Positions 2,860-64,000 of a DNA stretch of 64,000 bases are shown in pieces. The stretch covers positions 639,520-703,519 of the forward strand of contig NMRA01000159.1 in NCBI GenBank assembly GCA_002633005.1, read 5' to 3'. The translations under genes and the position numbers were made by a program. The notes beneath the pieces are model-generated. The model was given only the letters and a program-made list of their open reading frames with translations, searched no databases and was not told where the DNA came from. Each line of letters begins with the position of its first letter. Position 1 is the stretch's first letter. This DNA comes from Phoronis australis (taxonomy: Eukaryota; Animalia; Phoronida).

Positions 2860-3530
2860 TTCTGTTGTCTAGACTGCCAAGGAATCTGTATATCGGATCC
2901 AATGGTTTGCTCGTCTTGGAACCATTCTACCCAGATATCTTTGATGTTTGTTCCCAACGCTTGCACTTCGTCAACTGCTGTGTAAATGAGCTTGTAAGCC
3001 TCTACAATGCCAGCATCTTGTTTCGCAGCTCAGTTAGCACTAAGACCCTTGAGGTTGCCAAGTCCATTCAAAAGACTTACATGCGCAACTAAATTTGATC
3101 CGTTCATCATGGACTACTTCAAACCTTGGCGATGTATACCGGGGCCTATTTGCATCTCTTGCAATTTTCGAAATAAACGTCCCAATGTCTGAACGCTTAT
3201 AACCCGAAGTATTAACATCAAATAAATGCCCATGGGCATGAGCGTTTCATCGGGTGGGCCATTCTGCGGAAATTCCCAGTATAGAAGACGGCAGCCTGTG
3301 CTTACTGCAGGTAGAAAGACGGTAGCTGTTGAGGTCGGAGCTAGGGCTCCTTAGAAGGCCTATTGAACATCGCACCAGTCCCGCAAGACTTTGTTGTGAA
3401 AGAACAGCCTCCCCGCAATTTCTGGTACTGTACACAGTTCGCAAACGCGGTCACTTTGTCAATGTGAGTGCTCCCTTGGTCATTCCGTGCATAGACATAA
3501 CTTGTTAGAGTGTATCTTCAAACGGACTCA
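2860..3530 (-). pseudogene. Decayed hAT transposase fragment (THAP12/ZMYM1-like subgroup)
   Basis: Minus-strand translation with stops and frameshifts gives LKGLSAN*AAKQDAGIVEAYKLIYTAVDEVQALGTNIKDIWVEWFQ, resembling the hAT 'LS..LQ...DI..AY..I' region. WPTR* near 3250 may be a CxTRW-like motif. Recognised by eye only. Confidence 0.45.
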
Positions 3531-3539
3531 CGAGCAGAC

Positions 3540-3694
3540 CCCCTCCCCCCACTCAATTTGCTTTACTTGGGGTTTACACACGCTGGTGGGGCCGTTTTTG
3601 TTTTGCTGGAGACGTTTTTGTTTTTTTTTTATTTTTGGGTCCTGGCCCAAGGGGGGGTAAACCTCCTGACCCCCCCCCCGTAGATCCGCCACTG
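3540..3694. mobile_element. hAT-type MITE fragment (one end)
   Basis: Ends in TAGATCCGCCACTG, the reverse complement of the CAGTGGCGGATCTA terminus seen at 5477 and 16529. G/C-run subterminal tracts are present. Confidence 0.55.
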
Positions 3695-3699
3695 GGTTT

Positions 3700-4066
3700 T
3701 CGCACGATAGTCCCCAACACGGAGGAGGACACTGGTGTTGAATTGGATTACAACAGAACAGTATTAAAGAGATGTGGCTATCCTGAGTGGTCGATCATTC
3801 CACAAGGCAAACCATTGCGGAGTCAGGCCTCAGATCACGCAGCCTGACAAGAGGGGAAACATCAGAAAAACATTACCTTTTGTGCCAGGGATCTCAAACC
3901 AGGTTAAATCTCATATGAGGGGCCACGATATTCCTGTTGCGTTCAAACCAATTAACACCATAAGGAGTCAGCTGATGAATGTGAAAGATAAGACCACGAA
4001 ACAGAAAAAATCAAATGTGGTGTATGGCATTTCATGCTCGGATCCAGGGTGTGAGGAAGCCTACAA
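3700..4066 (+). mobile_element. Penelope-like retroelement fragment (RT C-terminal linker to start of GIY-YIG endonuclease)
   Basis: Translations VLKRCGYPEW and TLPFVPGISNQVKSHMRGHDIPVAFKPINTIRSQLMNVKDK...KSNVVYGISCSDPGCEEAY match the characteristic PLE linker/GIY-YIG start. Frameshifted and truncated just before the YIG motif. Confidence 0.85.
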
Positions 4067-5476
4067 TAGCCCACTTGCGAGTTTCTCATTAGTCAATGTG
4101 ACGTCACCGGAAGGGGGCAAAACCCGGACGCCATATTGCTCTTGTTTTCACACACGCTAAGGAGGCACTGAACAGTTCTCATATTGATTTGCCTATCAGA
4201 ACACACGTCAATAGACTCTTCACCCTTTCTTCACTCTGTCAAAAACTGCACGCAAATAAAGAAAAGTTTTGAGTCATTTCACATCACAAGCCCTACAGGT
4301 GAGCACAGAAACTTTGTACTCTCTTGTATTTTTGACCCTTTCACTCTCAATGGAAACCAAGCTGAACTAAGAAAAATAAGGGCAAAAAATGCAAAATCGG
4401 CACCTTTCACCACTTCCCTGCCGAGGCACGACTAAAACCAACAATATATTCTGAAAGAAAATTTCCTACAGATTCCGAAAATCTGGTCCAGAAGTACTGT
4501 CAATCAACTATTTTTTTTTGCAAATCTGGCTTGTTTGAGGGCTACCTGAAATCGCGGCCAATTTCTCAGTCGCTACCCAGCAATGCACAATTGCAACCGG
4601 GGGCCGCCATCTTGAAGAAGAGTGCAGCTGCAGCCTAGAAAGTGGCCTTTTTATTTTCAGCATGTTCACAAATGCAAACAAACCACATTCACCGAGCCTA
4701 CATGCAATGCCCACCTACAAAATGCCCCCAAACTTGGCCTACCCCAAAGTTTTAATATTTTGGCCGCAACCTAACTATTCAGTGCCCCCCCCCGGGCTAG
4801 TGCCGCAAAAATAAAACAGGCAGAGCGTAGGGAAATGTTGAGTTTATTAATTAACCCCGGTAATTAACATTATACGGCGGAAACAAGATTGAAATGTGCA
4901 CATGTTAGTATATGGGCCTGCTACCGAGTCTGGCAAATGAGCTCTGATGACACGCACGCGCTCGCTCGCAAACGCGACCCAGTCGCAAAATTACCTTTTT
5001 TACTCTCGCGACATCTAGCGCCCAGATAGCGTTTTGATGACATGCGCGTTGATAGAATGACCGGAGTCTTCACAAGTGGAGGAGTATTTTATATAGGAAG
5101 TAAACACTTGCGGAGGTCGGCTTTGTTTTTGTTTTCAAATTACACTGCAGTTGTATTCTTTGATAATTTGTAAAGGTGTAAACAAAAATACTCCAAGTAT
5201 ATGGCCTCTGTGCTTATGATATACCTCGCATTTTGCCTAATATAACTTTTGACATAAGTAATTGGCTTGTAAAATGCACACTTTATCTATTCATCAGTCT
5301 TACACAGTCGGTCACAAAGCCGATGTTATGTTTATTTGACGCCGCATGGTTGTCAATACTTGCATTTGAAGGCAACATGTTCATCTAATCAGATTTTGAA
5401 TTTGTCAATGCCCAAATAACATGCAGTGCTGCGAACACAAACCAATTTGCAAGTGTGAGGAACTGGCCGTACTAAT

Positions 5477-5796
5477 CAGTGGCGGATCTAGGATACCATT
5501 AAGGGGTGTCCAACATGTTGCCTCGGGACATTGTGCAAGGTGTGATTGGCAATTGCATGTGCGTAAGCAGCCCCAAAGGTGAGGGAGCCAGCCCGCGGAA
5601 GTGCACTTTCCATTCAGGAAAATCAACCATTCGACTATCGATTAAAAAAAGGAGCAGCCACTCCGCGGCAACTTGGACGTTCACCGCTACCGGTCCTACT
5701 TCCTAGACTCAATATTTCCTCACACTCCACACTGTTGCCCCTTCATTTGCTTGCGGCAGCTGAGGGGGGGGTTGTCGGGGGCTAAATCCGCCTATG
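5477..5796. mobile_element. hAT-type MITE nested in the MULE-like element
   Basis: Termini CAGTGGCGGATCTAG ... CTAAATCCGCCTATG, flanked by CTAAT/ATAAT (4/5 match). Body is similar to 19410-19645 and 22754-23077. Confidence 0.75.
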
Positions 5797-13165: not shown

Positions 13166-14346
13166 AAAAGAGGCCTGGAATGCGATATTTTGAAGAGCTT
13201 TCTTGTTCCATGTCTCTTTAAGAACCCTTTGGCGCTTCATACTTGCCAAGTAACAGTGCGTACTACGCAACTAGATAGTTATGGTAAAATCAATTCAAGG
13301 CTTTCTGATTATTAAACTGTGAGTTCGTTAACCCCATTGTCACCGACAATTAAGCACCAGATCGACATCCAGCACTGTGGACTCGAAAACTGTCATAGTT
13401 GTGGCCATTTTACACAACACTACCGACACAGTCAAGCTGGTTACGCCTTATGTGTAAGTGTTTTTTTCTAGAGACTTGCATGGGGGTTACTGAAACTTGA
13501 AATTTAATGGACAGATTTAATTGGATATTGGCGCAAAATTTCACCAACATCAGACTGATCAAAGTCTTCATGTTTAGCCATCTCTTGTACCAGTTTTATC
13601 ACACGTGGGTTTCAAATGATAATTTTGTGTGTGTCCTAAAACACGATTTTGTGGGCGCAATGTGCATTTGTCATTAGCTTTTACACGTGCGCTGGTTATT
13701 TTGAGAACCCTCGTCAGACGTTGATGAAACTTGACACAGGGACATTCATATACATGTACGGTGGGTAATGTGCTGACACTAGACAATTTTCGAAAGGATT
13801 CCAATACGAATCAATGTTGATGTCACTGCAGCCAAAATCGAAACTAACTGTTACTCAATGACAATTATCTTTAACGCGTCTTACCTAAGTACCGAGTTTT
13901 TTTCTTAAATATTCATTCTAGATGTTTGGAATTCATTAAATTTCAATAGAATTTCCATGACTATGTGCTCTGACGAAACTATTGTTGCAATTAGTCGTGA
14001 CACAATACAGTTTGATTTTTTTTAGGTAGGAGCACAATGTAGTTTCTTTCTCAGAATTGTGTATGAAATGGTTTCATAGGAAATGATTACAGGTTTCATT
14101 TTACATATTTCTAGCAAAATAAGAACCTTGATTTTGCAATCTTTGTAAGACATATTACTTCGAGAAGAATGAACCAGGTTTTAGAAACGAGATAGAAGGA
14201 ATTTGTTGGAGAACAGATGAAAAGCGGATGGGAAAGTAAGTGGATGTATGCTGAAACTCAAAAAATGCCATCGTGGATCCAGACATCCATAATTGTACCT
14301 GCGTGAACTGTGACCTCTCTTTAAAATTGAAATGAAAACGTGTTAA

Positions 14347-15740
14347 AGGAGAATGCCACCCGATTTAATTAGTCTTTTTTGCCGTCTTAATCGGTCTATA
14401 TCCACATCGCCTCGCATACGGTCGACCTTACCTTGCCGAGAGGTGTCGCATTAACCCGTGAGGAAGGTGAGAAGGCGACGCAGCGACATCAGTGGTTCAT
14501 TTGCAGAGTGAATTCCGCTATGTTGCGGTGCCATCGTTCCCGTTTTTCCGAACTATGCAACTGGGGGGAAAGCGGGTATATCATTTTTTCGACTTCCCCG
14601 AGAGTTCGAAATGCTAAGGAAGTGGCTGGCGGTAGTGAAGAATGAAAAGTACGCTGCAATGTAAGTAGCAAATATGAGGCCGTGAAACGTCTGTCTCATT
14701 AGATGCAATTTGGAATGCCTTTGGAGTGCTCGTGAGTGCAAATGATTTGAGAATTAAGCCAGCAATAAGTAAATCACTGTGTTACCGGCTTGGTGCAGCA
14801 ACATTAATTGACGGGATATCGAGGCCGTGTGAGCGCATGCTAATTTAGTGTTTGCTGACAGAAACTGTTGTGAAACAACTCGATTTCTATCCCACGGTCA
14901 CGTGTTAGGGGAATCTTTATTTACATTTACATTATTCAAATAATGATTGTCAATGTACAACTTCTGCCCTGAGGGTTCTGTGGCTAAAGCGGAACCTGAA
15001 TTAGCAGCCCCCGACGAGTAAGTAGGTTTGCAGTTTCGTAGCTAATTCACCAACATAATCACGTGCACGTTACTTCTTTGGCTCACTAGTATAGTATTTT
15101 CTTGACTGGAAGTTTAATTTCCAACTTTGTCTGGTTCATGTTCGTTATGTCTATCTTCAGTCTGGCCGCGACGGGCCTAATCGGTTTCCGAGCCACTGGC
15201 CGGGATAACTAGTCAGTCCGGCCGGTCGCGACGGGCCTGATCAGGCTCCGAGCCACTCATTGGCCATGATAAGAAACGTTTTGTGTGTTTAGAATTAAAA
15301 AAATCCCAAGTCTAAACAACACAGAGCTAGGTTCTCCTGTCTGTATCTCACGGAAAAATACTTTGAATTTATCTCCGAACAGACCGCGAACTTATAATTT
15401 ACATGTATTACTGGCCTGCCGAACTTTGTAGGCTACGGTGTGTCCAAATACCAATACATCCGTAACAGCGAAACAAAACAACACGTTTTTATAAGACCTC
15501 GGTGTATTTTTAAGGATTTTACATCGAAGTTTGATGATTTCAAGCGATAAGCTGACACCAGTAAACCGTGTTGTGAACTGCTGACCAGACTGCGTGTGAA
15601 ACCAATTACGTCATTGGATAATTTCAACACCTCCGTCTGCCGTTAGGTGTCAGGTAACGCAACCGTATGTGCCGTTATCGATTAGAACTACTCGATTTAA
15701 ATTGATACAAATTAGGTTGCTTTTTGGGTGGCATTCTCCT
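14347..15740. mobile_element. Kolobok-like non-autonomous element, copy 1
   Basis: Perfect 15-bp TIR AGGAGAATGCCACCC with TTAA on both sides (14343-14346, 15741-15744). Homologous along its length to 33336-35150 in inverted orientation. Confidence 0.85.
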
Positions 15741-19407: not shown

Positions 19408-20315
19408 GAATTAAGCGCGACTGCATGTGTACGGCCGATCTGCAAGTTGCGGCGGGGTCTCACGTTGTGGACCTACTGTTCAAAATGTCAATCAGAGGAC
19501 TAAAAAAGAAGAAAAACCGGGGACACGATTCCGCCGCGGTCTGGGGTCTGAGAGCCCCTCTTCCGCTACCGGTTCTAGTTACTGCACTCAATATTTCCTC
19601 ACGCTTCACGCTGTTGCCGTTGCATTTTCCTTGCGGCAGCCATGGGTTTAGTACATGTATATAACTCTTCCCAAACGGTTCTATGAAATGTGACTCATAT
19701 GCATGTGGTCTTGTGTATTAGCGGCAAAAACATGTTGTACAGTAGTTAACCAGTCCGCAACAAAGTAGTGTTCAAGTAAAGACGTCTTATTCACTCCTCT
19801 CTCCACAAGACATTACACAGGCGCGAGGCAGAAGAAATTTCGTCCTTCGTTGAAAAATTACAATTGTAACGTAATGGAAAACTTGAATTATCTGCTATCC
19901 CACATAACGTAGAATTGTCGTGAGGGCTTGACAAGGACTTCACTGAGGGGTCTCACACTCCACTGATTTTTTCACATTATTTTGAAAACGCTTTGTCTAG
20001 TCACACATTTTGTGTCATAAAAGAGATAAGCATACCTGCAGCTGATGCAACAAGTAGAATTACTCTCGTTTATCACATTGGTGTAGACTCACAGTTGAGC
20101 TGTGGTTTTCTGCTGACCCCAGACCGTCCTGAGTTGCACCATATACCAACTCTGGACGGTCTCTTACGACGATTTAGCGTTATGATATGGCTGTTCAACA
20201 TCCTCAGTTAGCAAAGACTGCTTGACAGGTAAGTCATATACGACTCCGAATGTCGGCGGCATTTACTTATCATATAATCTGCTAATCTCAGCTTCTGGAA
20301 ACTCATGGTGTCATC

Positions 20316-20698
20316 ACAGACTATAGTACATAGACCGCTAACTCCATATTTTCAGTAAACGACTGTGATCGTGCGCATAGGCCGTGACGTAAGTATTCAC
20401 TAGCAACACCTGGCAGTCGTAGCACGTTTTACTTCCTGCAAGTACGTCTTCTGCTAATCATGGTTGGTTTTTGTGTGGTCGGGTGTCAAAAGTACTCACG
20501 ATACCAAGAGTTCTACTATTCGAAGTTTTTGAATAGCGTTTGAATACCGAATTTTTTTTGTTTTCGTTGTACTGGACAGTAAAATTGATACAAGAATATT
20601 TCCCGTCTCAATACACTAACCGGAAGCCGAGTTTTTTGCTATGTTTAGATGGTAGCGCGCCTATAGGACGCAAGAACCCGTTGTCTATAATCTACGGT
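20316..20698. repeat. Dispersed short repeat (MITE-like); inverted relative at ~38127-38355
   Basis: 20490-20625 aligns to the reverse complement of 38220-38350 (AGTACTCACGATACCAA...TGTACTGGACAGTAAA...AATACACTAACCGGAA). Similar CATAGAC/GTCTATG-type ends occur at 41335-41727 and 49216-49245. Confidence 0.6.
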
Positions 20699-26843: not shown

Positions 26844-27660
26844 CTAGACCCAGAAGGTGTTGAAATAAGAAGTCAAAGACGTCTTCAAAGAAGGTAGTCC
26901 TTTGCGCCAAAGGTCCAAATGATCTCTGGCATGTGGACGGATGGGACCAACTGAAACCCTTCGGTTTCTGTATTCAAGTGGATTTGACGTGTTTTCTCGC
27001 AGCATTTTATGGTTAGAGGTAGCCTCAACAAACAATGATCCATCCGTATTTTGCCATTATTTTTCAAATGCAATTGTACAACTCGGTGGCTTGCCCAATG
27101 TGGTGAGGGCAGATCGTGGTACTGAAAACGTGCACATTGAGCGGATGCAGTCCTTCTACGCAGTGCCAACAATAACTCCCGCGGTAGACTTCAGACTTCG
27201 TTTTTATATGGATGCTCCACAACCAACCAGCGAATTGAATCTTGGTGGAGTATGTTCGGTTCCAGATTGATGACAACATGGATTGGTCATTCCAAGGAGC
27301 TGGCTAATGCGGGAGTAATTGAAAGTCACGTCGAATACTCGTACACATAGACTGTTGTGGGTTTTCTTATACATGTATGCATCTGCTGAGAACTTAATTA
27401 GACGAAATCTGGATGCTCTGGAACACGCATCACATTCGATCGTCATTTTTCGCCATCTGGAAGATCTGATGTTAATTATTTTTTACCGGAAATTACTGGA
27501 GGTGTAAATTGCTTGCATGAAGTCAACAACGCTTGGCTGGACGCCATTTCTAACCTGCTTACAGTCAACCCTCGCTGGTACCCTACGTGCTTAGCCACCA
27601 CGCAGGTACAGTGTATAACGCAGTGGGCTGGAATGCGGTTTAGCATTGGTTGACATAACC
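26844..27660 (+). pseudogene. IS3EU transposase, integrase-like DDE core (frameshifted)
   Basis: Across frames: LDPEGVEIRSQRRLQRR; GPNDLWHVDGWDQLKPFGFCI; FSRSILWLEVASTNNDP; GGLPNVVRADRGTEN; YGCSTTNQRIESWW; WNTHHIR. Confidence 0.9.
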
Positions 27661-33335: not shown

Positions 33336-35150
33336 AGGAGAATACCACCCAAAAACAACCTATTTTGTATCAATTTAGATCGAGTAGTTCTACTCGATAA
33401 CGGCAGGTTCGGTTACGTTACCTGACACCTGACGGCAGACAGAGGTGTTGAAATTGTCAAATGACGCCATTGGTTTCACACGGAGTCTGTTCAGCAGTTC
33501 ACAACACGCTTACTGGTGTCAGCTTGTCGCTTGAATTCATCGTTTAACACCAATAAATCACCAAACTTCGATGTAAAACCCCTAAAATACATCGAGTTAT
33601 TATAAAAAACGTGTTGTTTTATTTCGCTGTTGCGATTTATTAGTATTTGGGCACACCATAGCCTACAAAGTTCGGCAGGCCAATTTACCAAGGTCCGTAG
33701 CAGGAGTTTGGGGTCTGTTTAGAGATGAATTCTTCCGTGAAATACAGACAAGAGAACCTAGATCTGTGTTGTTTAGTCTTGTGATTTTTTGACTTCTAAA
33801 CACACAGAACTCTTGTTATCCCGGCCAGTGGCTCGGAACCCGATCAGGCCCGTCGCGGCCGCCGGGACTGGTACGAACATAAACCAGCTTGAGTTGGAAA
33901 CCAAACCTCCAGTCACGAAATGACTATAATAGTCAGTGATGTAGTGGTAAATGTAGAGGTAAGTAGGCGCCGAAAGCCCACCGCACCACCTTGAGCACTG
34001 AACGTAACTTACGGTGCGTAGGCGCTACGTTCAAATGCCAAAAGGTGGTTGGCTGCGCCTACGTGCGCCTACGTGCGCCTACGCCCCACAACATCACTGA
34101 TTATAGTGATCCAAAGAAATAATGTGCACGTAATTATTTACGTGAATTAGCCACGAAACTGAAAAGCTACTTACTTGTCGGGGGCCTCGATGTCGGGTTC
34201 CCCTTCCACAGACCGTCAGGGCAAAGATTTTACATTAACAATGATTTGAATAATGTATTTGTATTTCTGAATAAAGATTCCCGTAACATGTGACCATAGC
34301 ATATGAAATCGAGTTCTTGTTTCACAACAGCTATCTGTCAACAAACTCTGAATTAGCATGCGCTCACACGGCCGCGGTGCCCGGTCAATTACATTTATGC
34401 ATTGCTGGCATCAAAAGCCGGTATCGCAGTGGTTTATTTATTGCTGGCTTCTCAACATTTGCACTCACGAATACTGAAAAGACATTACGAAGTGTATCTA
34501 ATGAGACAGACTTTGTTTCAGTTTTGTATAAGCATTGGTGAAGATGAGAAAAATTCATTTTGAAACAGAACGCAGAATACATGGCAACTCGCCCGGCGCC
34601 AATCCCGACTTAGTCAAGAGCTCATCCGACGAAGACTTCACGGGTCGGATCGTTAGGTTTCACAGGCTATCAGTTCGAACCGGAATACACTGATCAAGAA
34701 ATACTAGCGAGGCGCCGTAAACGTGCATAGGCAACTGAACGTATGGATAGTTCTTTGTTAAGCCGGAATTCGTCAGAGAAATCACCGTCGACGAAATGCC
34801 GGCCACAGACACGGAGATGTTTCACGGCCTCATACTTGCTATAACAGCGTATCTTTCATTCTTCACTACCATGAGCCACTTCCTAAGCATTTCGGGCTCT
34901 CGAGGTAGTCGAAAAAACGATATACCCGCTTTCTTCGCAGCTTAGTAGTTCGGACAAACGGGAACGATGCACCGCAATATAGCGCATTAACTCTGCAGAC
35001 GAACCACTGACGTCGCTGCGGCGTTTCTAACCTTTCCCACAGGTTAACGTGACACCTCTCGGCAAGGTGAGGTCGACCGTATAAGATGCAATGTGGGTAT
35101 AGACCGATTAAGACGGTAAAAAGACTAATTAAATCGGGTGGCATGCTCCT
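33336..35150. mobile_element. Kolobok-like non-autonomous element, copy 2 (inverted, longer)
   Basis: TTTA|AGGAGAATACCACCC ... GGGTGGCATGCTCCT|TTAA. Reverse-complement homology to 14347-15740, plus two extra segments (33934-34099 and ~34512-34818). Confidence 0.85.
33934..34099. mobile_element. 166-bp hAT-type MITE with 8-bp TSD
   Basis: TIR CAGTGATGT(A/T)GTGG (13/14), TSD ATAATAGT/ATTATAGT, and GTAGGCGC/GCGCCTAC subterminal repeats. The empty site is visible in copy 1 at ~15085-15095. Confidence 0.85.
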
Positions 35151-35297
35151 TTAATTGGTGATTCAAATCAGCGGTAGATGGAGCTTCTATTGCATTTTGC
35201 GAAAAAGTCTTCTTAATGAAAGGATACAAAACCCCGGTCTTGGTCCATTAAGAGACATTAAAAACGATATTCCCTTTCAATTTTCTGAAGCAAAGCA

Positions 35298-36673: not shown

Positions 36674-39600
36674 GTGAGTTGGGCAAATGGTCACTAAGGT
36701 ATTCGAAAGTTTCCGTAAGGCACTGTTGCAACGAACGCCCTATCGTCAACGCATTTTTTGTCGTTGCTCACGTTATCGAACTCAAAACATGCATCATGTG
36801 AATCTTGGGACAACCGTATGCCGCGCTTTCCAGTTTCTGTTCTTCGCCGTGCAATCAATTTATTCAGTGGACGAAATTAAAGTCGCCGCAGACTGAGCAA
36901 GTCAATATTGAATGATTTTCCCGCCATGGGTGTTTACTTGATCAGTGGCACCGTCTGGTGCTCTAGGGTAGGGATGGTTAAATCCGACCCTACTTTTCTA
37001 GGCGACAATCTCAAGTTTGCCTCAAGCTTTGGTCGGGTTTAAACCTAAGTGGTTTCTCTAAGAAAATCTTCGTAATGCATTTTTTACTCCAAAGCCAGCC
37101 CAGAGGAAGTAATAGGGCTTTGTCTGTCTTTTTGGACTTCAAGCCAAATAAAAAATGGAAATCACTGCAATGTAAGCAGTTTTGTATGAATTTCGCAGAT
37201 AAAGAAACGCCGTCGCATTTCAAAAATCAACAGCGAATTATTCATTCTATCCAGAATTGAACAAGGGTTATTACCCGTAAAATCACAAACAGCCCATTTA
37301 AAGAAAACATTAAGAATACTGGGCTCAATGCTTACAAAAACGTGAAAGGAACAAAGCAAGTAGAACCAGAGAAGAACGCCTCGGCACCACACTTAATTTA
37401 AGCATGCTATAGCGGAGAACAACCACACTCGGGCTTCGAAGCATTCTCAATATAGCCCCAGAGTATAACCTTTTTACTCGAAACCGAACACGAGAGTGTT
37501 TTTAATATTTTCCTTTCTACTTTTGTACGAATACAAGAGGACTGTCTATTATTCGATGCTTGAATATATTATGATTTACGTGGTCGCCTGCGCACCTCAA
37601 AATTTTCACTTCGTAACCTCAGCATTAAACACCTCACGCCAAGGTCATAAATGCTTGAATTCGGTTACCAACAATTTATTCATGGTATTTTAAATGTTTT
37701 TCTTCAAGTTGTGCACTTGTAATCAAGATATAAACGCAAAAATTAAAATATTGAATGTTTAGTGTGACGTCATCAGTGGCGCTCCGGTCTCTGCCATTGT
37801 TTTGTTCTACACGAGTTGTAAGCCGGCCGGGAGTGGTATCGAATAGAGTTGAATATTGCGTGAAACACGTGTAATGAAAAGGTGCACGTGCGGAGTATGC
37901 ATATGAATAGCAATCATACAGCCAATAATAATTTCAGTTGATGTATTTCCAAAAGACGTTATAAGATCTTCCAGAAAATACATAGATTCGTGCATCGGAA
38001 ACGGGTATGACAGCACACAGTTCAGGGATTATGTTGTGTTTCCGTCTATTTTGGAGAATTGTGCTTCGACCCGTTGCTGAAACGTAGATTTTATGAAGGT
38101 TTCTCCAGCGCGTAAGTGCATTTGATCAGAGATTATAGACAACAGATTCGCAACTCTGACATTTTCTTCCGTGCTAGCATAGAGGCGCCGCCACTCTCCT
38201 AAATTTTCTGGTGCAGTTTCCGGTTAGTGTATTTTGACGAGAAATATTTGCATCTACTTTACTGTCCAGTACAAAAAATATTAATTTCGGCATTGGAACG
38301 CTTTTCAAAGTCTTCCAATAGTAGAAGTGTTGGTATCGTGAGTACTTTTGGCAATGCTACTGGTAATTAATTACAAAATTCAAACTTAGGTGCCGACTGA
38401 TTATGACGTCTACTTGCCCAATAGCATAGAGCATAGTTATTCATTACCAGCAATACATGTACGTAAACTAGGTCATCCGCCAGGTTCTCTGCATAAACTA
38501 GGTCATCGCTTATGGACCAGTTAGCGCTTCACACTCCGCGTGTCTGCTTGTAAGAGAAGCACCAGGAAGGTTGTTCTACATTGTGTAGCCCAAAATTCCC
38601 AAAGTTCAAATATATTCCGTTAAAAAGGAAAGACAAAACATATTATTACAGATGTCTGGCCAATACCAACAGTCACCACTCGTAAGCAAGTCAAAGCTGT
38701 CCTTTTTACTCGTTGCCTTATCTCGCACTACCTTAATCGACTAGTTTTTCGCAATGCAACAATACAATTCTCATAAATTCAACTTGTAATGACTCCTTTC
38801 AATTTTAAACCATGCCCGAAGTACTCGGACACAAATTATTATTAAGTACAAAAACATTTTTTTCTCTGAAGTGGATCGTAAACAGCTCGGGTGACTTTTC
38901 CTGACATGGCTACCGGATTTCAGTGCCTAATTTTAGCTCCCATTAGGTCGGTCAAGGGCCAATCTCTGCTGTACGCACTACTGAGAGCATTGGAATCAAA
39001 CTGTTATATATATAAATCAAACGTTTATTAGTATACTGGTGTGAATATTATCAGTGATTTAACCAACAACTTCGAATTAACTAGACCCACTGATGATAGC
39101 CTATGACAACATATACTGATATCAAAAGGCCAAAATTGGCAATTTTCGGCCACCCCATGTTAAATACAAAATTTCGTCTAATTTTCTTCAAACTCCTACA
39201 TTTCAATCTTGATTATACTGACATCTGTTGGGTCTATCGGCAACTAACCGCACATGAAGGGCTTGGTCGAAAATTATCGTTTTCTCACATGCACTTTCCG
39301 GTTTTCAGCGGCGATTCCACTGATCGAAGCGACAAAATAAGCCGAAACTTTGGCCATACCCTGTTAAACATTTTTTTTCCAATTTTGCTGAAACTTGACC
39401 ACGTTTTTAATAAAATACTTATCTATGTTATGTGCTGTCGGCAAATGTGATTGGTTCATAAATAAGACCCCCGCGCTGTGTTTTCTGCGAATCCCATGTA
39501 TCCTGGAGGGGACTGACTGAGTGATTTTCGCGCATGCGCAGCTCACGGTTTCAATATTGCTGGTAATGTGGACAGTTTGTGATTTATATGGTTCACATTG

Positions 39601-39778
39601 ACCTACGAATGCATGTTTGTGCACAAATTCCAAGGAGTACCTGTGAATGCAAAAGATACTTATATAACGTTTTTGGTTTAGAAAAATATTAATTTTGTTC
39701 GAATTAAAAAATGCGCCTCTGCAACGATTTGACTAGTTAAACCTCTCAAGTGAGCAGTTCTTCAGGGAAGTGTTGAGT

Positions 39779-39794
39779 GGCCCTTAAAAGGGCC
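39779..39794 (-). terminator. Histone-mRNA-type 3' stem-loop (distal)
   Basis: Minus strand reads CCAAC-GGCCCT-TTTA-AGGGCC-ACTCAA: a 6-bp stem, 4-nt loop and flanks matching the metazoan histone 3' UTR consensus. GAAGAA lies ~16 nt downstream. Confidence 0.75.
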
Positions 39795-39835
39795 GTTGGT
39801 TGTAGTGTGCATGAGACTTAGGTATAGCTTGAAAT

Positions 39836-39851
39836 GGTTCTTAAAAGAACC
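39836..39851 (-). terminator. Histone-mRNA-type 3' stem-loop (proximal)
   Basis: Minus strand reads TCAAC-GGTTCT-TTTA-AGAACC-A, starting 10 nt after a TGA stop. Confidence 0.7.
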
Positions 39852-39861
39852 GTTGAATAAT

Positions 39862-40200
39862 TCAACATAAATCACACAGTATACCGTGCGCATTCAAGTA
39901 CTGAAGGTCCTTTTCATTCAAGTTTTCATCAGGGAAGGTTGGATGAAAACAGAGGAGATGACAATATCGATGACAGTTGTAACACCTGATATAAATGTTA
40001 CCGTTCTCCAACGTTATCACGAACCCTGCCGCTTTCAGTTCAGTAACCCTGAACAGTAGGGAAAAAAGACATACAACAAAAATTTTTTGAAAATCATCGC
40101 CTTCGTACGATTCCGTGTTGCTGTCGCTAGACTGATGTTCCTCCCCAACATCAGTGTCGAAAATCGACGTTACAAGTGATGGAAACTTATGTCCTTTTTT
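39862..40200 (-). pseudogene. Stop-to-stop 112-codon frame encoding an acidic tract plus a PHD-like zinc finger (no ATG; probably 5'-decayed)
   Basis: ...DTDVGEEHQSSDSNTESYEGDDFQKIFVVCLF...ENGNIYIRCYNCHRYCHLLCFHPTFPDENLNEKDLQYLNAHGILCDLC*, which gives the pattern CxxC-x4-H-xx-C...CxxC. Absent from the ORF track because it has no suitable start codon. Confidence 0.6.
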
Positions 40201-40544
40201 CTAACTTTTAACCCATTTTTAAGAAAGGGGTACACTGATTTTGTCTAATGTTGATAGAGCATAACTTTAATTTTTTACAATGTGAATTGTGTTGGCTGCA
40301 TTCATATTAAGTGGCTTCATTGAGTTGAACAGAAAATAAATTAAATGTAACACAAAGTTTTGAAAATAAATAGAGCAGTAACAGGACTCCCTAAGAATCG
40401 AATTTTTTTCGAAAACTTTGCACCATTGATGATCTGATTGGTTCATGCATTTACGGCGGGAAAATAATAGACCAAGTATCGTGCACGTGTGCACTGTAGC
40501 AACACTTTGTAGCTTATTCTTTATTGGCCAGTCTGTTGATACAG

Positions 40545-41271
40545 TAAATTTCCTTATTTATGCCCATCCTGATTTGACTGCAACTTGAGCTTGTTGGGTT
40601 CTATCATATATTAGGTTGGCATTGGGACCCACATGGTGCTTACTCGAATGGGCTTCATTTTACCAACTATTTCAAATTGTGTAGGTGAAGTAAATAAACA
40701 AAGTGGGTGATTATCATCACCGGAATTTCATCATTAGTATCTTTTGCCGGGTGCTCAAATTTTCTGAGACTAGAGATTGTCAGATTTGTAAGGTAGAAGT
40801 GTTTCGCTTGATTTCCAAGTCTGTGGCGTTATTCATACATTTATACCGGACCAAAATTAAAAAACGAGGCCTTTGTTTAAATCAGGAGCTGCATGATACA
40901 CGTTTTACGAGACGTGCGCAGACAGCGCATATGGGTACATTGCACTGATCACTTGAAACCATTTTCATGGTTTATTAATATATAGTTAAACCAAGCTGAG
41001 GAGCTTGAAAGCTGATTCACGGCAATTTTTGGCAGTGGGATTTTCTGAAAACTGCTCGTAAGTTAACAACAAATTGACAGCAATGCACTGCAGTTTTGTA
41101 GAAACTGTCATAGATTACAGATGCGACACAGCGCGCAAATTTGATGAATTCTAGCTTACGATTTCACCTGTTTTGGAGACCGGGTTTCAACCACTTTTGG
41201 GCTATAATAAGCGCCCACTTTCTGAAGCGGATTTTATAAAGCGCCCTGGCCGCTTATTAGGGCGAATACGG
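40545..41271. mobile_element. pogo/Tigger-like MITE remnant
   Basis: TA|CAGTAAATTTCCTTATTTATGCCC ... GCGCCC...GCTTATTAGGGCGAATACGG|TA. A related terminus, TATTCGCCCTAATAAGCG, occurs at ~16749. Confidence 0.45.
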
Positions 41272-43147
41272 TAATATGTCAGAAGGGCAATACTTAGTAT
41301 CCTTTATGCACGGGACCCTTTGTTGTTGGGTTTTCATAGACTGCAGTCGAGAGACTTTGTGCGGCATATACAGTCTCGACATGAAATGAGTGTGTAACCT
41401 GCTGTTGAATTGCGAGATAGATTTTGACTGGTCCAGGTGGGTATTAATGTAATCTTTATTTGTGTTAAAGGTTTTACCAGCGTTCTGTTTATTTGTACAC
41501 GAATGTGAATTCGTTGAAATCGCTGATCCAGATCCTAGCCAAATGTACGCATTCTGCTGAGACCAACCGTCTGATCAGGGCCAGCGAAAAGTAATTTGGT
41601 TAATTCGCTCACTAGACTATGGCTGAAGTTCCTCGTAAGGACAAGAGTTTACGCTTGTGTGTAAGATCACAGATTTCGCCCATTGAAAGTATACGGAGTT
41701 GGCGGTTCATGTACTATAGTCTATGATTTGATGAACAAAAAGCGTGTATTGTGTTGCACTATTGCCGAGTGTCGAGCACTTATTGTATAAACGCTTCTGC
41801 TTCAAATTGGCCGAGATGATGAATGTGATTGCAGTAACAAAGTTCTCAACAGTCATCAGTGCAGTCTTGCATGCGCGCACCCAGCCTTTAATATGGGGGG
41901 CTCGAATCTCTGACAAAGTGTACATATTGTTAACAAAAAAGCGGGAGGACTAAAAAAAACGGGGTAGCACCATCAGGTCTGTGAACTGTGCGTCAGCACC
42001 TTTTTAGTGGACTTTTGTCTCGTTTTTTGTCTCGTTTCTCAGAATTTTTGTTTCTATGAGGCGGACCTTTTTACTCACCCGTTCGAGCCCCCATGTCTCG
42101 CTTAAGATTTTGTGGGAATGCGTCAATGTCCAATTGTACGAATGTAAATAGTGCCGTTTAGACATCAACTTTTGGCCCTGGCGCCCGTTTATACACACAC
42201 AACCCGCCACTAACTTCGGCAAGGTGGAAGTTGTAGGCTGGAGAGTGGAACGCACGCAACGCACATGTGCAGGTTTATAAATGGCGGGAGTTGCAGAAAC
42301 AGATAACCCGTATGTAGGTCACTGCACAAGCGCAGTAGAGTTGATCCTTTTCGCCTTGCCCCAGTTTCACGTTTAGACATACACTGTATAATTGACACGG
42401 GGCAAGATGATCGAGTGCAAATTGCTCTACCTCACAAACGGATAGCAAAGGCTGTCACCGTGGTGTCAATTTGCCCCAGATCAGTCTTGTTTACAAACAT
42501 ACTTGCGCTAGAACATCTCGTCCGTGTCAGCTGATCGGTGGCAACTTTAGTGTTAAAGCTACAAGTTCAATTTTTACTCGAAATCTTTAACTTTACTAGA
42601 GTTTGTAGCCGAGTCTAGGGGCTATCAAGTCCAAATTTGAACTGCACACTCGTTTGTATGTTCCATAATGTACTCAAGTAAAAATAATGCATAATTGTGT
42701 TAAAGAAGAAAGGAAATTTCAAAAGCATTTTCGAGTTCGATTTCCCTGGGCACTGCCTCAACCAAAAAGCTACTCGTTGATCTAGTTAAAACTGCTCCTA
42801 GTTTTCCTGGCCCGTCAAGTGATTTGTGGCCAGTGTGAGTCGAAGGTCTGCATACAAGTAAGGAAGCCCGTGGCTTATTTTTTATTATTCTTTGAATGCT
42901 ACATGTACGTGGGAAAAAGATATCAATTACCGGTACATGTATATGTAACAGTAAAGTTCAAAAAGGCTAAAGAAGAGGATATGCGGTCTAGATATAGGTA
43001 GATCCAAAATTTGCAATAGATGTTCAAACATGCTTCAAAACGAGATTGTGCAAAGCATTTCGGTGGTATAGAAATAAAAATTCCATTACATGCCTCATAC
43101 AATTTGCTATTTGTAAGCCTTCAAACAATCTGTACATTCGATTTCAG

Positions 43148-43895
43148 GTATATTTTCTCAAACAGAACGACTTGGACGACGGGTCGAAACCTTTTGTACC
43201 GAAGAGCGAAAATAGTGATGGACGATTACAATCAGTATAGCTACCACACCTTCATGGACGGGGATATTCTTTGGAATTGGTCTGAATGGCCTCGTTTTGA
43301 TGTTAACATCAATCGATCAAACGTATCTCCAATGCGGGCGTACGAGCAATTTTTGTTGCGAAATCTACCCGTTTACTCCAATCCGTTTTATTCTCAAACT
43401 AACATGAAATACGACATGGAAACATTGATGAGAAACTATGCTTGTGGATCGCGATGCGCCCAAACTAACAAAACATTACCCGCTATTTGTCTTGCAATTG
43501 CACCGGACGCTGCAGTTGCCAGTTTCCACAGGCATGCCATCGACAAGCTCTTGCCGTACAGTGAGCAATACGAAGCCAAATCTTGGTGGGTGTCTCAACA
43601 GATTATGTACGTTCGACTGTACGTCAGGTTCCACAAACAAAGTTTGACTTTTTTGCCAGTAACAGTTTGCAATCCGTCCCACTCCAACTACCCTCGTGGA
43701 GTGATCCCGTACCACAAAATTGTGGCTGCAGAAAAGTTGTTGTCGCCTCTTTCGAAACAAAATTTGTCCATTTGGCTCGAAGCGCACAGCACATTTGTCA
43801 AACTGAAGACGGTGCCCACGTGCCACCATATGCTAGACCCGACCATAAAGAGAACACCGAACTTAAATATGGAGACGTATGTTACGATGGCGTGA
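43148..43895 (+). CDS. Terminal coding exon of gene copy 1; putative GT-A-fold glycosyltransferase-like domain
   Basis: Longest ORF in the window. Acceptor ATTTCAG|G joins in phase with the donor at 36673 (HV-AG|G-YIF). Motifs TTWTTGRNLLY...YSYHTFMDGD (RN...DxD arrangement) and FH...LLPY...SWWVSQ. Function is inferred only. Confidence 0.85.
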
Positions 43896-44718
43896 TCGGC
43901 AAGCACTGATTAGGAACTGTTTATGAACTGGATATGTATCCATATTGTTTCGCTTAGTAAGGCTATACCGTCATTTTTCTTTGTTTATTGTGGAATCGAG
44001 ACACATCGAAGAGGCATGGAACACGAAAGCTCGTCAAAAATATCTTTTGAACAATTCCCGCCGAAAGTGCCTCCTCGAAACGTCTAGTAGAGAGTAATTC
44101 ACTTGTCCTTGTAGGGAAATTTGCAGACAAATATTGAAAAATTCACGATTTTTGAAAAAGACGCGAAGGGAAAACTCTATAGTTACCACAGATATTCTAA
44201 TCTCCTTCCCACTTATGATAATTGAAAGCATACGCTCACAGTCAGTTGCTTGAAGTCTCTCGAGGGCAAAGGTCACATTTGCCATGAGGGAAATGTGCTA
44301 CATCTGTCTTGCTATACCAAATAAGGAGCCGTGCTTTCTTTGTGGAAGAAAAGTCGACGAAGTGGCGACCAGTTGACCGATCTTTTCTTTTTTTGAAATT
44401 TGAAACAAAAAGAAAATGCATTGATATGAACAGAAATTAAAAATCTTTACAAACAAACCCTAAAAATACCTGGTGAGCAGGTTGAATTCTATTTCAGTGG
44501 CAGAGAACCACTTTCAGTATTGCAATTTAGTCCGTTTATCGCGTTCCAAGCCTCTTAAACATAAACTCACAACTGTGAATTTGTGCAAGATACAATATTT
44601 GTTCCGGGGTCCTAATCAGCTAAGTAGCATTTTGATGTTTTGAAAAACATTTCCAAATTGTTATTAGCTTCTATTGCCTAAATTAAAACGTCAGTATTGG
44701 TATCGGGCTGACTATCAT

Positions 44719-48500: not shown

Positions 48501-50562
48501 TACATAGGGTACTGTTATCCACAGCACTAAGCCACAAGTATATGGACTTAAATCGCTCGGTGATGATTATTCCTAGCGTGTTCGCAGGCAGGAACAGGGT
48601 TAATCGAGCGTTGCGAGCGGATTCAAAAATGTTATCAAAAACACCTCCTATCAAAGTGTAAAACTGCTTTTCAAAACACCACACGTTATCAAGAATTGAT
48701 GATCTCAGATAATATCTCTAGAAAAAAATATTAACCAAATCAGAGTTAGAATCATAAAAGCGTGTTTGCGAACTTCAAAATTCTGTCATATGTCTTTGTG
48801 TGAGAATCAACGGTAGCGTATGAATATATACTGCAGACTTTCAGACGAAGGTGCTGGACTAACTTGTTACCTTTCTGTGTGTAAACGGCACAGGTTGGTG
48901 TGATGAATTCGCCTAGAAACGTTTTTTAGTATCAACAGAAGATTTTTATGAACCTGTTGACATTTTAGTGCGCTTTTTATAGTCCAGTTTGATATAATGT
49001 ATTTTGTGGTGCAGGCATTTTAGCAGAATTCGTATGTAATTAGGTTTATCGGTTTAAAAATTACCAATTTAAACAAATTACATTCATTATGTTATTTTCG
49101 AACCTGCATGCTTTTTATTGGTTAGTGCGAACCTTGTTGTCCCTACATTAAAAGAGGCGTGATCACTTAACGGCCTGAGATGACCTACACTATGTAGTTA
49201 TCTCATTACACCTAACCATAGATTATAGACAACTATAGTCTATGATCTAACTCCCGTTTAGTTCATATTCCTGACAACACCGGTTTTCAGAGGCATGAGA
49301 TCAATCTTTCTTTTGTTTATCGCCAGGCTCAGTCTTTTGTCCGATGACACGAAGCAAACGTCAATTATCTCCACGTACTCTGAAGGAATGCATTGATGTA
49401 AACACACATCGACTCAAAATTTTGTAAACAACTAAAAAACTCCAACGTTTTGGCCATTCTTATCGTATTTCCTACACGAAATAGTGATTCTGCACTAACT
49501 TTTAAAAAGAGGAATTATATTTCAGAAACCAAATACGTTTAATATACGACTTTCTGCCCTTGACATTCCCATTTATTTCTGACACCATTTTGTTGCCGCG
49601 AAGGTATTGTTAATTCGATAATTGCGCTCTACAAAACAATGGGAGTATAAATCAACTTTGGTGATATCAAGATACCACTGAACCGTCTAAAGCAATACTC
49701 CCAACTTAAAACGCTAATAACTTCATTTATTTGCAATTTCGAACTTAGCAGCCCTCAATAAGTGATCAATGGAAGTTTTGGTTGTTTGCAGTATGTGTTG
49801 TCTGCTTCTAACATTACTTTGTCCTCAAAACTTTATTAATAGACTTGTTAAGTGTTAAGTTTTAGCAGGCTGACTAGTGTACAAATGAGGTGACTGGAAT
49901 AGTTGGATGAGTCAAAGTAAATGACAAATTCGTGTCATGTTACCGATGCATTTGAGCTCTATTGTGACGTAAAACTTTCTATTCAAGATACGCCTAAAGC
50001 TGGAAGAAAACTGCAGAGATGTCGAGGAGGAGTCTTAAAACAGGACACAAGTAAGCTGAATGACATTGGTCACGTGCCACGCGGTGGTCCTGCAAGTCAC
50101 GCTACCGGATGTTGTCGCAACAACCCACTTTTGTAGCAAGCGATAGGTTTACTGTGCGAAACGAAGTGAAATTAAATTTAAATTTAACTTTATTAGTGCA
50201 TTTATCGTCATTATTTTGACATTTGTCACTTTTATTATAGAAATAAATTGATTGATTGTAAAAAGCCTGAAGGTCCTTACAGATAATGTATAATAAGAGA
50301 AAATAAAACGGCATCCGGGATAAAGGTTGGGAAAAGTAGAGAGAAAAAACGTAGAGGTCTTGTAGACAACGAGGTATGTGGCTGAATGAACTAGACCACG
50401 CTATACTGAACCAAGGAAATAATGTCGAGTAGAGAGGTGCATGAATATAGAGGTAGAAACCGGAGGATATACATAGAAAGAAGTAATGTAAAATAAACCA
50501 TAATGGTTGGTACAAAAATAAAAGTTCGGGCAGAAGGGACACACTCTGTTTGCCCTATCCAA

Positions 50563-60500: not shown

Positions 60501-62526
60501 GACCATTTTATTGTAAAATGCTGCCTAATTGGAACCGACAAGCCAATTTTTCATTTTGTGGTGGTTAGTTTTGATAAGAACATTGATGTGGTAAATACAG
60601 CTACCTCAAGTTTGTGAAGAAGAGATTTCCAGTGTTGTCAGCGATATTGCGAAATCACTTTTTCACAATGAGACTGCATCACCTTAAATGTAATTCTCTG
60701 ACTTTATGAGCTTTGTGTGGTTGACTCTGTCCTGTAGCAATTAGAGTGTTGAAAAGATCTGGAAGGCAATTTTTTATTAGGGTCATAACATTTGCACTTT
60801 TGACTGTACAGTTATTTTTGCATTGTATTACGAAAACACATTTTGTAGTACACAAGTCTCTAGTTGGTATTTTATATTTTTTCACAAGGAATATTTTTAA
60901 CTTAGATGAGTTGTCTGTGAGGTAGGCAATTTTCAAATAAGATAATGAATAAAATTGTCAAACGTTGTTTTATTTTTAGATGTGTGATCTTCCAATAAGT
61001 GATTACTGTTAAAAAAACTTTGCAGAATTTGACTTTCACTCTTCATTTGAAGGAGAATAAATCCATAAACCTGCATTGTCTAGAAATTTTACTCAAGCTA
61101 TATATTACAGGGTTGGGGATTGGAATCTTAATACAACAGAGTCTGAACCAGTACCATGAGCAATACCACGCAATACACGGATTAAAAAAATTGGGTTTGT
61201 TTAAGTTCCACGGAAAGGATTCGTGTGCGCGGTAATAGTTACTAAGATGCGTGGTCTTTGTTTGTGGATACTTTAGGATTCCTCTTCTGTGGTCATCCAC
61301 GGGAAACCTGGTCGCATAGACAACAATAGTTTAGCATCTTCATTGTTCCCGTTGTTATAATAAAAATAAAATGACGAGCACTTATCGGCAACGGTCTGAT
61401 GTACGCAAGGTTCTATATCCATGCGACCTGTGTTGTTACATCCAACAATGACACAACAAAGGAAAACAGTGATAGGGCCCATGGGCGAAAAACATGCGAC
61501 GAGTTGCCACGGACAGTGGTGGAGTTTGTCTTGTCATTCGAATGTTTTTAGAGAACTGCAAACCCGGTATTTCGTCAGGAAAATTTCTGCGGTCTTTTGT
61601 TTTAAGACGTGGGAAAAATTGCGGTCATGCAACCAAACTTATCATTCATTTGATATTACAACGCATTGCATGAACATTTGATCAACAGAAAATCTGACTT
61701 GAATATGTGTGAAGAAATACCCATGAGGAAATTGCAAAGTAAAACAACGGTAAATCAAAATAACCTACATTTGTCGAGTTCATGTCTAACCCTGTTCACT
61801 GTGGAGGACATAATCGGCTTTTTACAAAATGGAACCGTGTATGGTATTTAGGAGTACTGTAGCCCTAATTGGTAAGTAGTAAAACGTTCAAAACATTCAG
61901 GAGGAACTAACTTGTTGCAAAATATCGAAAAACATGGAGGACAATCGGATTTTACGGTGCTCACCCATCGGTCTCAGATATATGAAAATTTCTCATTTTA
62001 GGTACATTTGAGGTACCAAAATGTATAACTAATAAACTGGCTGACAAAGTTTTTATTTTATGAAATGAAAGTAACATGTTTTGTCAACATTTTGGCTAAG
62101 TTTCATTCTCATAACTGGGGGCAGATTTGGTACAGCAGTGTACTGAACACAACCTCAAAATGGCATAACGGGGGGCAGTGTAGTAAAACTACTAAATGAG
62201 GGTGGTAAATCGGAGTCGTGTTTCAAGACATCTGTGTAACAATCTACAGGCACCACTAAACAATGCCAAGTGAATAATAAATCAATAGCTTTCATTCAAG
62301 GAAAAATATGAACAGTTTTAAAAACTGGACAGTTTTTATACCGTGAAAACATGGCTGCGACGCCGTAAAATGTGTTCGAGCCTATAACTTTAGAAAAACG
62401 TAATATTTTGAGGAAATATTTTACCGCTGTTTATAGATCCCATAGGGCTACCTATGTGCCAAATTTGGTGAAAATCGGCTGACCCCCACCTTGCCGCTCA
62501 TGGCTGGTGCTCTCGTGGACTAGTAC
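57528..62526 (+). mobile_element. TTAA-flanked DNA transposon remnant, Sola3-like
   Basis: TTAA|GTATCAGTCCACG ... CGTGGACTAGTAC|TTAA, with a shared subterminal GCGGCAAGGTGGGGG(G)TCAGCC. Coding remnants: EVERVLLRSSL...VCR...YWRRQR (~58480-58640) and KGWVWKSSQPARRYPSGQL...PEDMSKRICSLRNESGKK/FAKDYWLIPQQVQS (59184-59425). The superfamily is recalled from motif similarity and is tentative. Confidence 0.6.
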
Positions 62527-62677
62527 TTAAACACTATCTTAAACACAACAAATTTGTTACGAACTGCTTGCACAAAATATAAAACATGTAATAAGCATTA
62601 CAAAAAGAAGGTTTCACGCGCAAACGCTGTGGACCATAAACAAGTAGGTCTCTTAGTATCAAATTTGGAGTTAAATC

Positions 62678-62745
62678 GTGGTGGTGCAGTGGTAAAGCAT
62701 GCGCGCTCTGTCCGCCAGGTCGTGAGTTCGAGTCTGTGGTGCTTG
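62678..62745 (+). other. tRNA-derived (SINE-head-like) sequence
   Basis: A-box-like TGGTGCAGTGG (62682-62692) and B-box-like GTTCGAGTC (62726-62734). No convincing acceptor stem. Confidence 0.5.
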
Positions 62746-63699
62746 CGGTTTTTCCTGTTTGACACTTTCTGCGTTTCTTTTTTGCCTTTTTTTCTTGGAT
62801 AATACTTCGGGAATCAAGGAAAATGCTTGATTTTATAGGAAAAAGCAGAAAATTTTCCTGGGCGGGAGGGGGCAAACCCCGTTCCGATCTCCTCCCATGC
62901 GGTGCTATGGCATCTACAATCTTGCTTTGAGCAAGTGTTTACAGACAAAATGTTGGCCCCCCCTTGTGATATCCTAGATCAGCCACTGGCACGTATAAAT
63001 TACGTGGGTAAGTTAATTCTTGCACCAATATAAATGTTTAGCATGACGTCATTGTGACGTTTTAGGCACAGTCTGACGGCATGTCTAATCTTATTTCCGG
63101 GACCAAATTCCGTCATCTACTGCCATTACACGTCATTACTAAACATCTGAATACTGTATGTGTACGCTACGTCAAAATGGGACCGAAGCAATCTCACTCG
63201 GGCTTCGAAGCGTACTCAGTCTGAACTGATTGGAATCAAGGGCTTGAGCGAATACCTCAACGATTACGCGACTTACTGAGTTGTAATAGAAACTGAAAGA
63301 TTCTATGAACCAGCCTTCCGAAAAAATAACTACACTTCAAACTGGTCACAATTTTCCTGACCCAGGTTACAAGTGATTTTGGCATTATTGAGCTAACTTA
63401 TAGGATAATAAACCCTGTTTTGATAATTTCAACCAATCCTGGATGCATCGTAAACGTCAATCTTCCAATTTAGAGACAGGAGTCAACTAAAAACTCGTAA
63501 CCCCTATCTAACAAATTGGACATTATTTTCTTAGTTGGTGGTCTTTTCCCACAATTGCCACGTAATTCACTGAAAGCGTAGGTCACGCTTGCCCCTTCAA
63601 CAGACTTTGAAATTTTCCAGTCCAAATTGTGAGAGTTGTCGATGGTCATTATTTTGTTTCAGATAACTGGTTGGGAAAGTCGTTTGTAGTATCTGTTAA

Positions 63700-64000
63700 G
63701 TACTAGTCCACGAGAGCACCAGCCATGAGCGGCAAGGTGGGGGTCAGCCGATTTTCACCAAATTTGGCACATAGGTAGTCCTATGGGATCTATGAACAGC
63801 GGTAAAATATTTCCTCAAAATATTGCGTTTTTCTAAAGTTATAGGCTCAAACACATTTTACGGCTTCGCAGCCATGTTTTCACGGTATAAAAACTGTCAG
63901 TTTTAACTGTTCATATTTTTCCTTGAATGAAAGCTATTGATTTATTATTCACTTGGCATTGTTTAGTGGTGCCTGTAGATTGTTACATAGATGTCTTGAA
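63700..64000 (-). mobile_element. Second, inverted copy of the right end of the 57528-62526 element (runs off the window)
   Basis: TTAA|GTACTAGTCCACGAGAGCACC... is a near-identical reverse complement of 62222-62526. Confidence 0.9.

Follow-up and report, generated by a model that had tools for sequence, protein, structure and literature searches.

A transposon-like repeated unit in our window (the whole 64-kb stretch of DNA analysed here) carries the remnant of a PHD-finger gene that is followed, on its own strand, by two tandem hairpins of the type that ends histone messages. The explanation we favour, and consider somewhat probable, is that the PHD gene of a DNA transposon acquired a histone-type 3′ end, which SLBP and U7 would use in active copies. 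A wider proposal, which we offer tentatively, is that unrelated animal DNA transposons have repeatedly put a histone 3′ end on their own genes (the PHD gene here, a Merlin-type transposase in contig L006), which would yield SLBP/U7-made messages without poly(A). Passages of PMC4604434 and PMC5054213 hold finishing by stem-loop, SLBP and U7 to be exclusive to histone messages among cellular mRNAs, and PMC4604434, in the part cited, describes histone messages as the only non-polyadenylated cellular mRNAs. If our explanation is true, a transposon gene with the full signal would break this histone-only rule; on the wider proposal, the histone 3′-end pathway would have a second, selfish class of client.

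The gene remnant is a decayed PHD-finger frame of 112 codons, stop to stop, on the minus strand (39862..40200), with homology from about 40155; it ends ...CYNCHRYCHLLC...ILCDLC*. It has no in-frame ATG and is therefore not an intact gene. The first CxxC pair is lost, leaving only the C-terminal half of the C4HC3 ligand pattern, and a short middle segment that matches the related protein P0002 sits in a different reading frame. Identity with P0002 is 66% over 80 columns and the PF00628 score is 13.9 bits, against a cut-off of 24. We class the window's PHD copy as a pseudogene. The nearest CCAAT box upstream of the remnant is at 40437..40441 (minus strand), and further CCAAT boxes lie at 40527 and 40625. 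P0002 and other copies code continuously through 40080-40047, which is why a candidate splice acceptor there was rejected.

Ten nucleotides past the stop of this frame comes the first stem-loop (39836..39851, minus strand), and 57 nt further on the second (39779..39794, minus strand). Folded separately, each forms a 6-bp stem with a 4-nt loop, and direct reading finds the stems to differ at two pairs, both compensated. Thus far the sequence-only reading was accurate: the coordinates bear out its 112-codon minus-strand frame, the ILCDLC end and both spacings, and its tandem stems with two compensatory differences are as described. It proposed scoring both hairpins with the Rfam Histone3 model (RF00032), where hairpin 2 scores 35.6 bits (E 1.2e-6) and passes the gathering threshold of 34, and hairpin 1, at 26.8 bits (E 2e-4), does not. 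Its remark that it recognised no histone coding sequence agrees with our scan, in which none of the window frames examined matched a histone and the frame upstream of the hairpins is PHD-like.

A degenerate histone pattern has two exact matches in the 64-kb window versus 0.07 expected, and none of 100 shuffles of the window contained at least two. The shuffles exclude chance, and we regard it as highly improbable that the hairpins are look-alikes or DNA palindromes acting as transposase binding sites. The stems are indeed palindromic on DNA and lie inside a transposon-like unit, and a third, weak Histone3 match (20.4 bits; 39123-39177, plus strand), which we take as chance, proves that look-alikes occur. 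Yet loop, AAC 5′ flank, 3′ flank and purine element agree with the RNA signal, all on a single strand, and short derivatives of the unit, presumably mobilised, carry no hairpins. The 20.4-bit match itself has histone-like flanks and a longer palindrome, and sits within a nested insert.

The purine element, GAAGAA, lies at 39758..39763 (minus strand), that is, at +16..+21 after stem 2, and is a candidate histone downstream element. In another animal, the H2A, H3 and H4 genes on contigs L008, L011 and L009 have AAAGAA at +16..+21 past the stem, the same register, and H2B has AAAGTA. By chance AAGAA is expected with probability 0.0017 at a single fixed position and 0.008 within ±2. At the corresponding register hairpin 1 has TAAGTC, a poor match, so that only hairpin 2 has a good downstream element. 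In other copies position +15 (39764) is also a purine, in 52/52 RNA reads of X6, 56/58 of X7 and 7/7 of X8; the variant is present in DNA contigs of other copies too. A UCUUU box is common to U7 RNAs according to part of PMC5054213, and GAAGA would be able to pair with this conserved box with one G-U wobble. The passage of PMC7026596 that deals with mouse gives AAAGAG as the core of the downstream element and a cleavage site fixed in distance from that core; here the predicted cut falls after 39774. At the level of sequence, hairpin 2 is a complete histone-type signal.

We compared this arrangement with the 3′-end system of metazoan replication-dependent histone mRNAs (RF00032 stem-loop, histone downstream element, SLBP, U7 snRNP and CPSF73). 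The window shares with it the 16-nt stem-loop, the right flanks, the sense strand, the location just past the stop and a purine element at +16..+21 as in the other animal's histone genes. It differs in that the gene is a PHD frame, the hairpins are in tandem, the carrier is a high-copy mobile unit and processing is predicted from sequence. Bivalve histone genes also carry the hairpin, as PMC6210712 states in part.

The stem-loop of hairpin 2 is identical at 16/16 positions to that of the H3 gene in L011, and together with the histone register of its purine element this makes a histone origin likely. We suggest that a histone gene was the source from which the signal was copied, and that it was duplicated. 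The same two observations would suit a fragment of a histone-gene 3′ end that was carried along passively and never used by the PHD gene, as would the lack of a hairpin in distant relatives and the fact that no processed RNA ends were seen. This we think unlikely: the hairpins are on the correct strand, 10 nt past the stop and free of any histone coding remnant, there are two of them with two compensated pair differences, and the same arrangement recurs in an unrelated transposase remnant and after a non-histone frame of another animal. DNA depth is also highest at the hairpins. Summed depth, which is not copy number, is greatest in the bin of hairpin 1 (61,247); the bin of hairpin 2 ranks fourth (31,013), and the median is 7,450. 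No variants among copies fall in the stems among the 40 of 165 variant places listed, which is not significant.

The unit lies in antisense within a GT..AG intron of a host gene (38112..43147, plus strand), as the sequence-only reading had placed it; the RNA joint 38111->43148 is supported by 34 reads in X6 and 19 in X7. The host gene is on the plus strand, and the PHD frame is therefore antisense to it. The host exon at 43148-43895 (plus strand) is expressed and has no Pfam match; its look-alikes in the Atlas, at scores of 0.94-0.95, are hypothetical viral proteins and proteins of the DUF707/DUF5672 type. A second RNA joint, 36669->43144, suggests an alternative first exon of the host gene.

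Three stranded RNA runs, chosen by species label and with selection unstated, were searched by reading 18-19% of each. They gave 806 reads on 39560-40520, of which 4 are at 99% identity. The reads thus come from other copies or alleles. Sense and antisense depths over the frame are 39/33, 26/21 and 2.6/4.5 in the three runs, a pattern that resembles passive transcription of many copies. RNA ends do not pile up at 39774 or 39831 in any of the three, so that the runs lend the predicted cut no support; the libraries, if poly(A)-selected, could not show such ends. Sense reads that cross the predicted cut, counted at 39764, number 14, 35 and 1. Eight molecules in X6 begin at 39805, and were rejected as processed ends: they are on the host-sense strand, occur in one of three runs and lie off both predicted cuts. 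They probably reflect the edge of an alignment where other copies have a gap.

In the mechanism we propose, active copies would be bound by SLBP and cut by U7/CPSF73 at the equivalent of 39774, with hairpin 2 as the main site. Alternatively, SLBP might bind the hairpins in RNA that is longer, read-through or polyadenylated, with the hairpins controlling translation or storage or acting as an SLBP sponge, and with no U7 cleavage. Only one of the two hairpins has a good downstream element, RNA reads traverse both, and a polyadenylated form of H2AFX is described in part of PMC4604434 as retaining its stem-loop. Against this stand the purine element of hairpin 2, which is in the cleavage register and is longer in other copies, and the read-through RNA itself, which comes from both strands, as passive transcription of many copies would. 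Binding without cleavage strikes us as quite unlikely, a little more so than passive carriage. The HeLa-cell section of PMC4604434 names histone messages as the sole targets of SLBP, which counts against use by a transposon.

The sequence-only reading called the frame PHD-like. This is true of the family, and the window's copy retains half the ligand pattern and lacks an ATG. A homologue search against 1.8 billion representatives (threshold E<=0.001) gave 6 matches for the PHD frame, and further searches added more members, among them P0016, whose name marks it as a PHD-type protein of Dreissena polymorpha. The intact proteins of the family measure 107-114 aa and have an acidic start and C4HC3 spacing; the C4HC3 ligand pattern is present in 7/13 sequences tested. 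The cut-off of PF22908 (PHD_NSD), 23.9 bits, is passed by two of the seven family proteins scanned (27.7 and 26.1 bits). A first structure model of the family was poor (pLDDT 58). The model of P0016 has a pLDDT of 81 and its 13 best structural matches are all PHD chains, the best of them weak (Z 4.9, rmsd 2.8 over 64 residues). Foldseek with this model gave no match at E<=0.001, and sequence searches of the PDB were uninformative.

The C4HC3 pattern of the intact relatives, together with a model that matches PHD chains best but weakly, supports the assignment of the family to the PHD fingers. Intact relatives share C4HC3 with known PHD fingers (PF00628, PF22908; MLL1 PHD3 3lqh, ARID5 6lqe, Pygo 3zpv). 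The family differs in being a stand-alone protein of about 108 aa with an acidic N-terminus, two inserted helices and weak structural scores, and the window's copy differs further in the missing first cysteine pair. The protein may read chromatin on the element's behalf.

A tree of 12 rows divides the family into two subfamilies with 100/100 support, the window, P0002 and P0003 versus the remainder. A profile search with the window's own, near subfamily recovered its own members alone. Of 11 candidates, none was a longer relative of the last 61 residues, which is weak evidence. No relative was found in genome contigs with query A4. No member of the window's subfamily was recovered as an intact copy with flanking sequence, and P0002 and P0003 yielded no flanks.

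The outer repeated unit (38125..41727) is likely a non-autonomous DNA transposon. It is 3.6 kb long and holds the PHD remnant and both hairpins. Its ends are inverted repeats (38125..38138, plus strand, and 41714..41727, minus strand) that match at 12/14 positions. Depth in DNA contigs of the same species, which again is not copy number, is about 11 in the unique flanks versus about 430-5600 in the bins of 38004-41677, with 3,893 in the hairpin bin, a several hundred-fold contrast between unit and flank. At 38130 many reads break off, with mixed sequence beyond, and joints from 38170 or 38351 to about 41662 occur in other copies. The window also contains a short, internally deleted relative on the minus strand (20313..20698; 386 bp, 81% alike to 38218-38353 and 78% to 41665-41727), which has both ends and neither the PHD gene nor a hairpin. 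The unit thus has what characterizes a non-autonomous DNA transposon, namely many dispersed copies, defined inverted ends and deletion derivatives; these features, with the high depth, sustain the earlier idea of a mobile-element relic. A 32-bp piece (49215..49246, plus strand) consists of two end motifs only, and may be a minimal copy or an excision product.

Within the unit, 38442..39568 is bounded by a perfect 14-nt inverted repeat and is probably a nested insert; a joint 38425->39570 supports it, as do contigs of other copies that end at 39568/39569. The gene end and the hairpins are kept together in contigs of other copies (39745-39987, 39748-39921 and 39744-40041). We suppose that the gene and the inverted ends have been carried by a single element from the start. 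No contig linking the gene to both ends of the unit was found, and the joint 40744->41870 reveals other arrangements.

Searching 74 frames of the unit revealed no transposase, recombinase, integrase, polymerase, capsid or viral gene. The sequence-only reading had suggested a Polinton/Maverick-like or viral source, and in our view it is most improbable that the unit is a fragment of such a virus or of a large element using histone ends. An integrase core remnant is indeed present in the window (26923-27270, plus strand; rva_4, E 5e-8), but it lies some 11 kb outside the unit. The unit itself spans 3.6 kb, ends in 14-bp repeats and has short derivatives, none of its 74 frames matches a polymerase, capsid or integrase, and relatives of the PHD gene are tied to a frame of the cut-and-paste transposase type. 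Viral contigs held no relative with query P0001 and no match to four patterns. One viral-contig match to A3 (L005; E 4e-4, 22 residues) was rejected as a phage false positive, which leaves no true viral relative in seven scans of viral contigs.

The ends of the unit, CCATAG...CTATG(G/A), with inverted repeats of 11-14 bp, the size of a tyrosine-recombinase site, and non-autonomous derivatives, resemble those of Cryptons. Part of PMC3212892 gives CryptonS ends as TATGG and recombinase-site repeats as 11-13 bp; for the animal groups CryptonA and CryptonI, the same portion of this 2011 paper reports that no terminal repeats were found. CryptonV is named in passages of PMC8869645 and PMC5753468, and the part of PMC8232201 seen here contributes names only. 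Set against this likeness, no tyrosine recombinase occurs in the 74 frames, though a non-autonomous copy need not have one, and no autonomous partner was found. The Crypton resemblance is a lead only.

Four metagenome loci (L001-L004) carry distant relatives of the gene, all of the other PHD subfamily. In each, the PHD stop is followed after a gap of 2 to about 35 nt (2 nt in L002 and L003) by a long frame, or by what remains of one. The long frames of L001 and L002 encode a transposase-like protein, and the L002 frame scores 27.7 bits against DUF7869. From its transposase motifs we take this frame to be Sola-like. The likeness to Sola-type transposons thus lies in the placing of the PHD frame of the other subfamily just before such a frame. 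The window's unit is unlike them in lacking such a transposase, and at the place of the relatives' transposase start it carries hairpins; tblastn with the frames of L001-L004 against the window gave no match apart from PHD, hence no Sola-type transposase. In L001 and L003 a splice acceptor upstream of the PHD frame of about 108 aa hints at a two-frame transposon message.

None of these four loci has a Histone3 match (E<=0.5) or a match to the pattern close to the PHD stop, and L002 has no hairpin past its transposase either, which speaks against the signal having long served the whole family. Homologues without hairpins were named in the sequence-only reading as telling against it; 0/4 distant loci have one, but these loci form a separate subfamily. 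What would fit is a single lineage in which a frame that stood before a transposase became a stand-alone gene with an end of its own.

A second case comes from G001, a bacterial assembly of GTDB. The 932-bp, animal-like contig L006 is the sole match to the hairpin pattern among genome contigs, and holds at 521-871 (plus strand) the remnant of an IS1595-type transposase (PF12762 E 5e-5, below the cut-off; NF033547 E 2e-7), which we presume to be Merlin-type. Its hairpin (824-839) has the orientation of the frame and lies about 85 nt beyond the transposase domain; it scores 35.8 bits with Histone3 and shares 21 identical nt with the region of hairpin 2 in the window. In this copy the frame stays open across the hairpin, whose downstream element is degenerate. 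The frame has no relative among plasmids or viral contigs. By itself the pattern match is not significant, with about 4 chance matches expected in that collection (calculated by hand); what gives L006 weight is how it scores with Rfam and that G001 also contains animal histone contigs. Contigs L008-L013 include animal contigs with H1, H2A, H2B, H3 and H4 genes (judged by eye from translations), and these are host contamination. The L006 case is independent of the window's element and unrelated to it.

Of the Histone3 matches in G001 at E<1e-6, five of eight follow histone genes and three (L007, L012 and L014) do not; of two weaker matches, one is the tandem partner in L014 and the other lies in L015. 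In L007 a 120-codon frame without a Pfam match (155-514, minus strand) ends 24 nt before a hairpin at about 115-130, which scores 43 bits with Histone3 and has a histone-like downstream element. L014 has two tandem Histone3 hairpins 29 nt apart (602-675, plus strand); the 57-codon frame before them matches nothing in Pfam, and no histone was seen.

For cut-and-paste elements, transposition in S phase brings a gain in copies. If our preferred explanation is true, mobile elements could time their own genes to DNA replication, and the message would peak in S phase or in eggs, with the copy gain and the germ line open to the element. We expect the product to be a message without poly(A), expressed in S phase or in the oocyte and early embryo, and such transposon messages would escape poly(A)-selected RNA-seq. 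Histone-type messages are coupled to S phase in the account given in part of PMC4604434. Within the limited library searched, with Repbase Reports outside it, we found no publication on transposon or other non-histone genes with histone ends.

The window is rich in other repeats. Further high-copy repeats occur at 41870-42700 and 44009-44556, the latter with inverted ends (18/25 match). A repeat of 1.4-1.8 kb occurs twice in inverted orientation, at 14343-15727 and 33348-35154; pieces of the two copies are 80-97% alike. At 62222-64000 there is a long, near-perfect inverted repeat (203 nt at 98% and 96 nt at 99%), which is probably a young foldback or TIR element.
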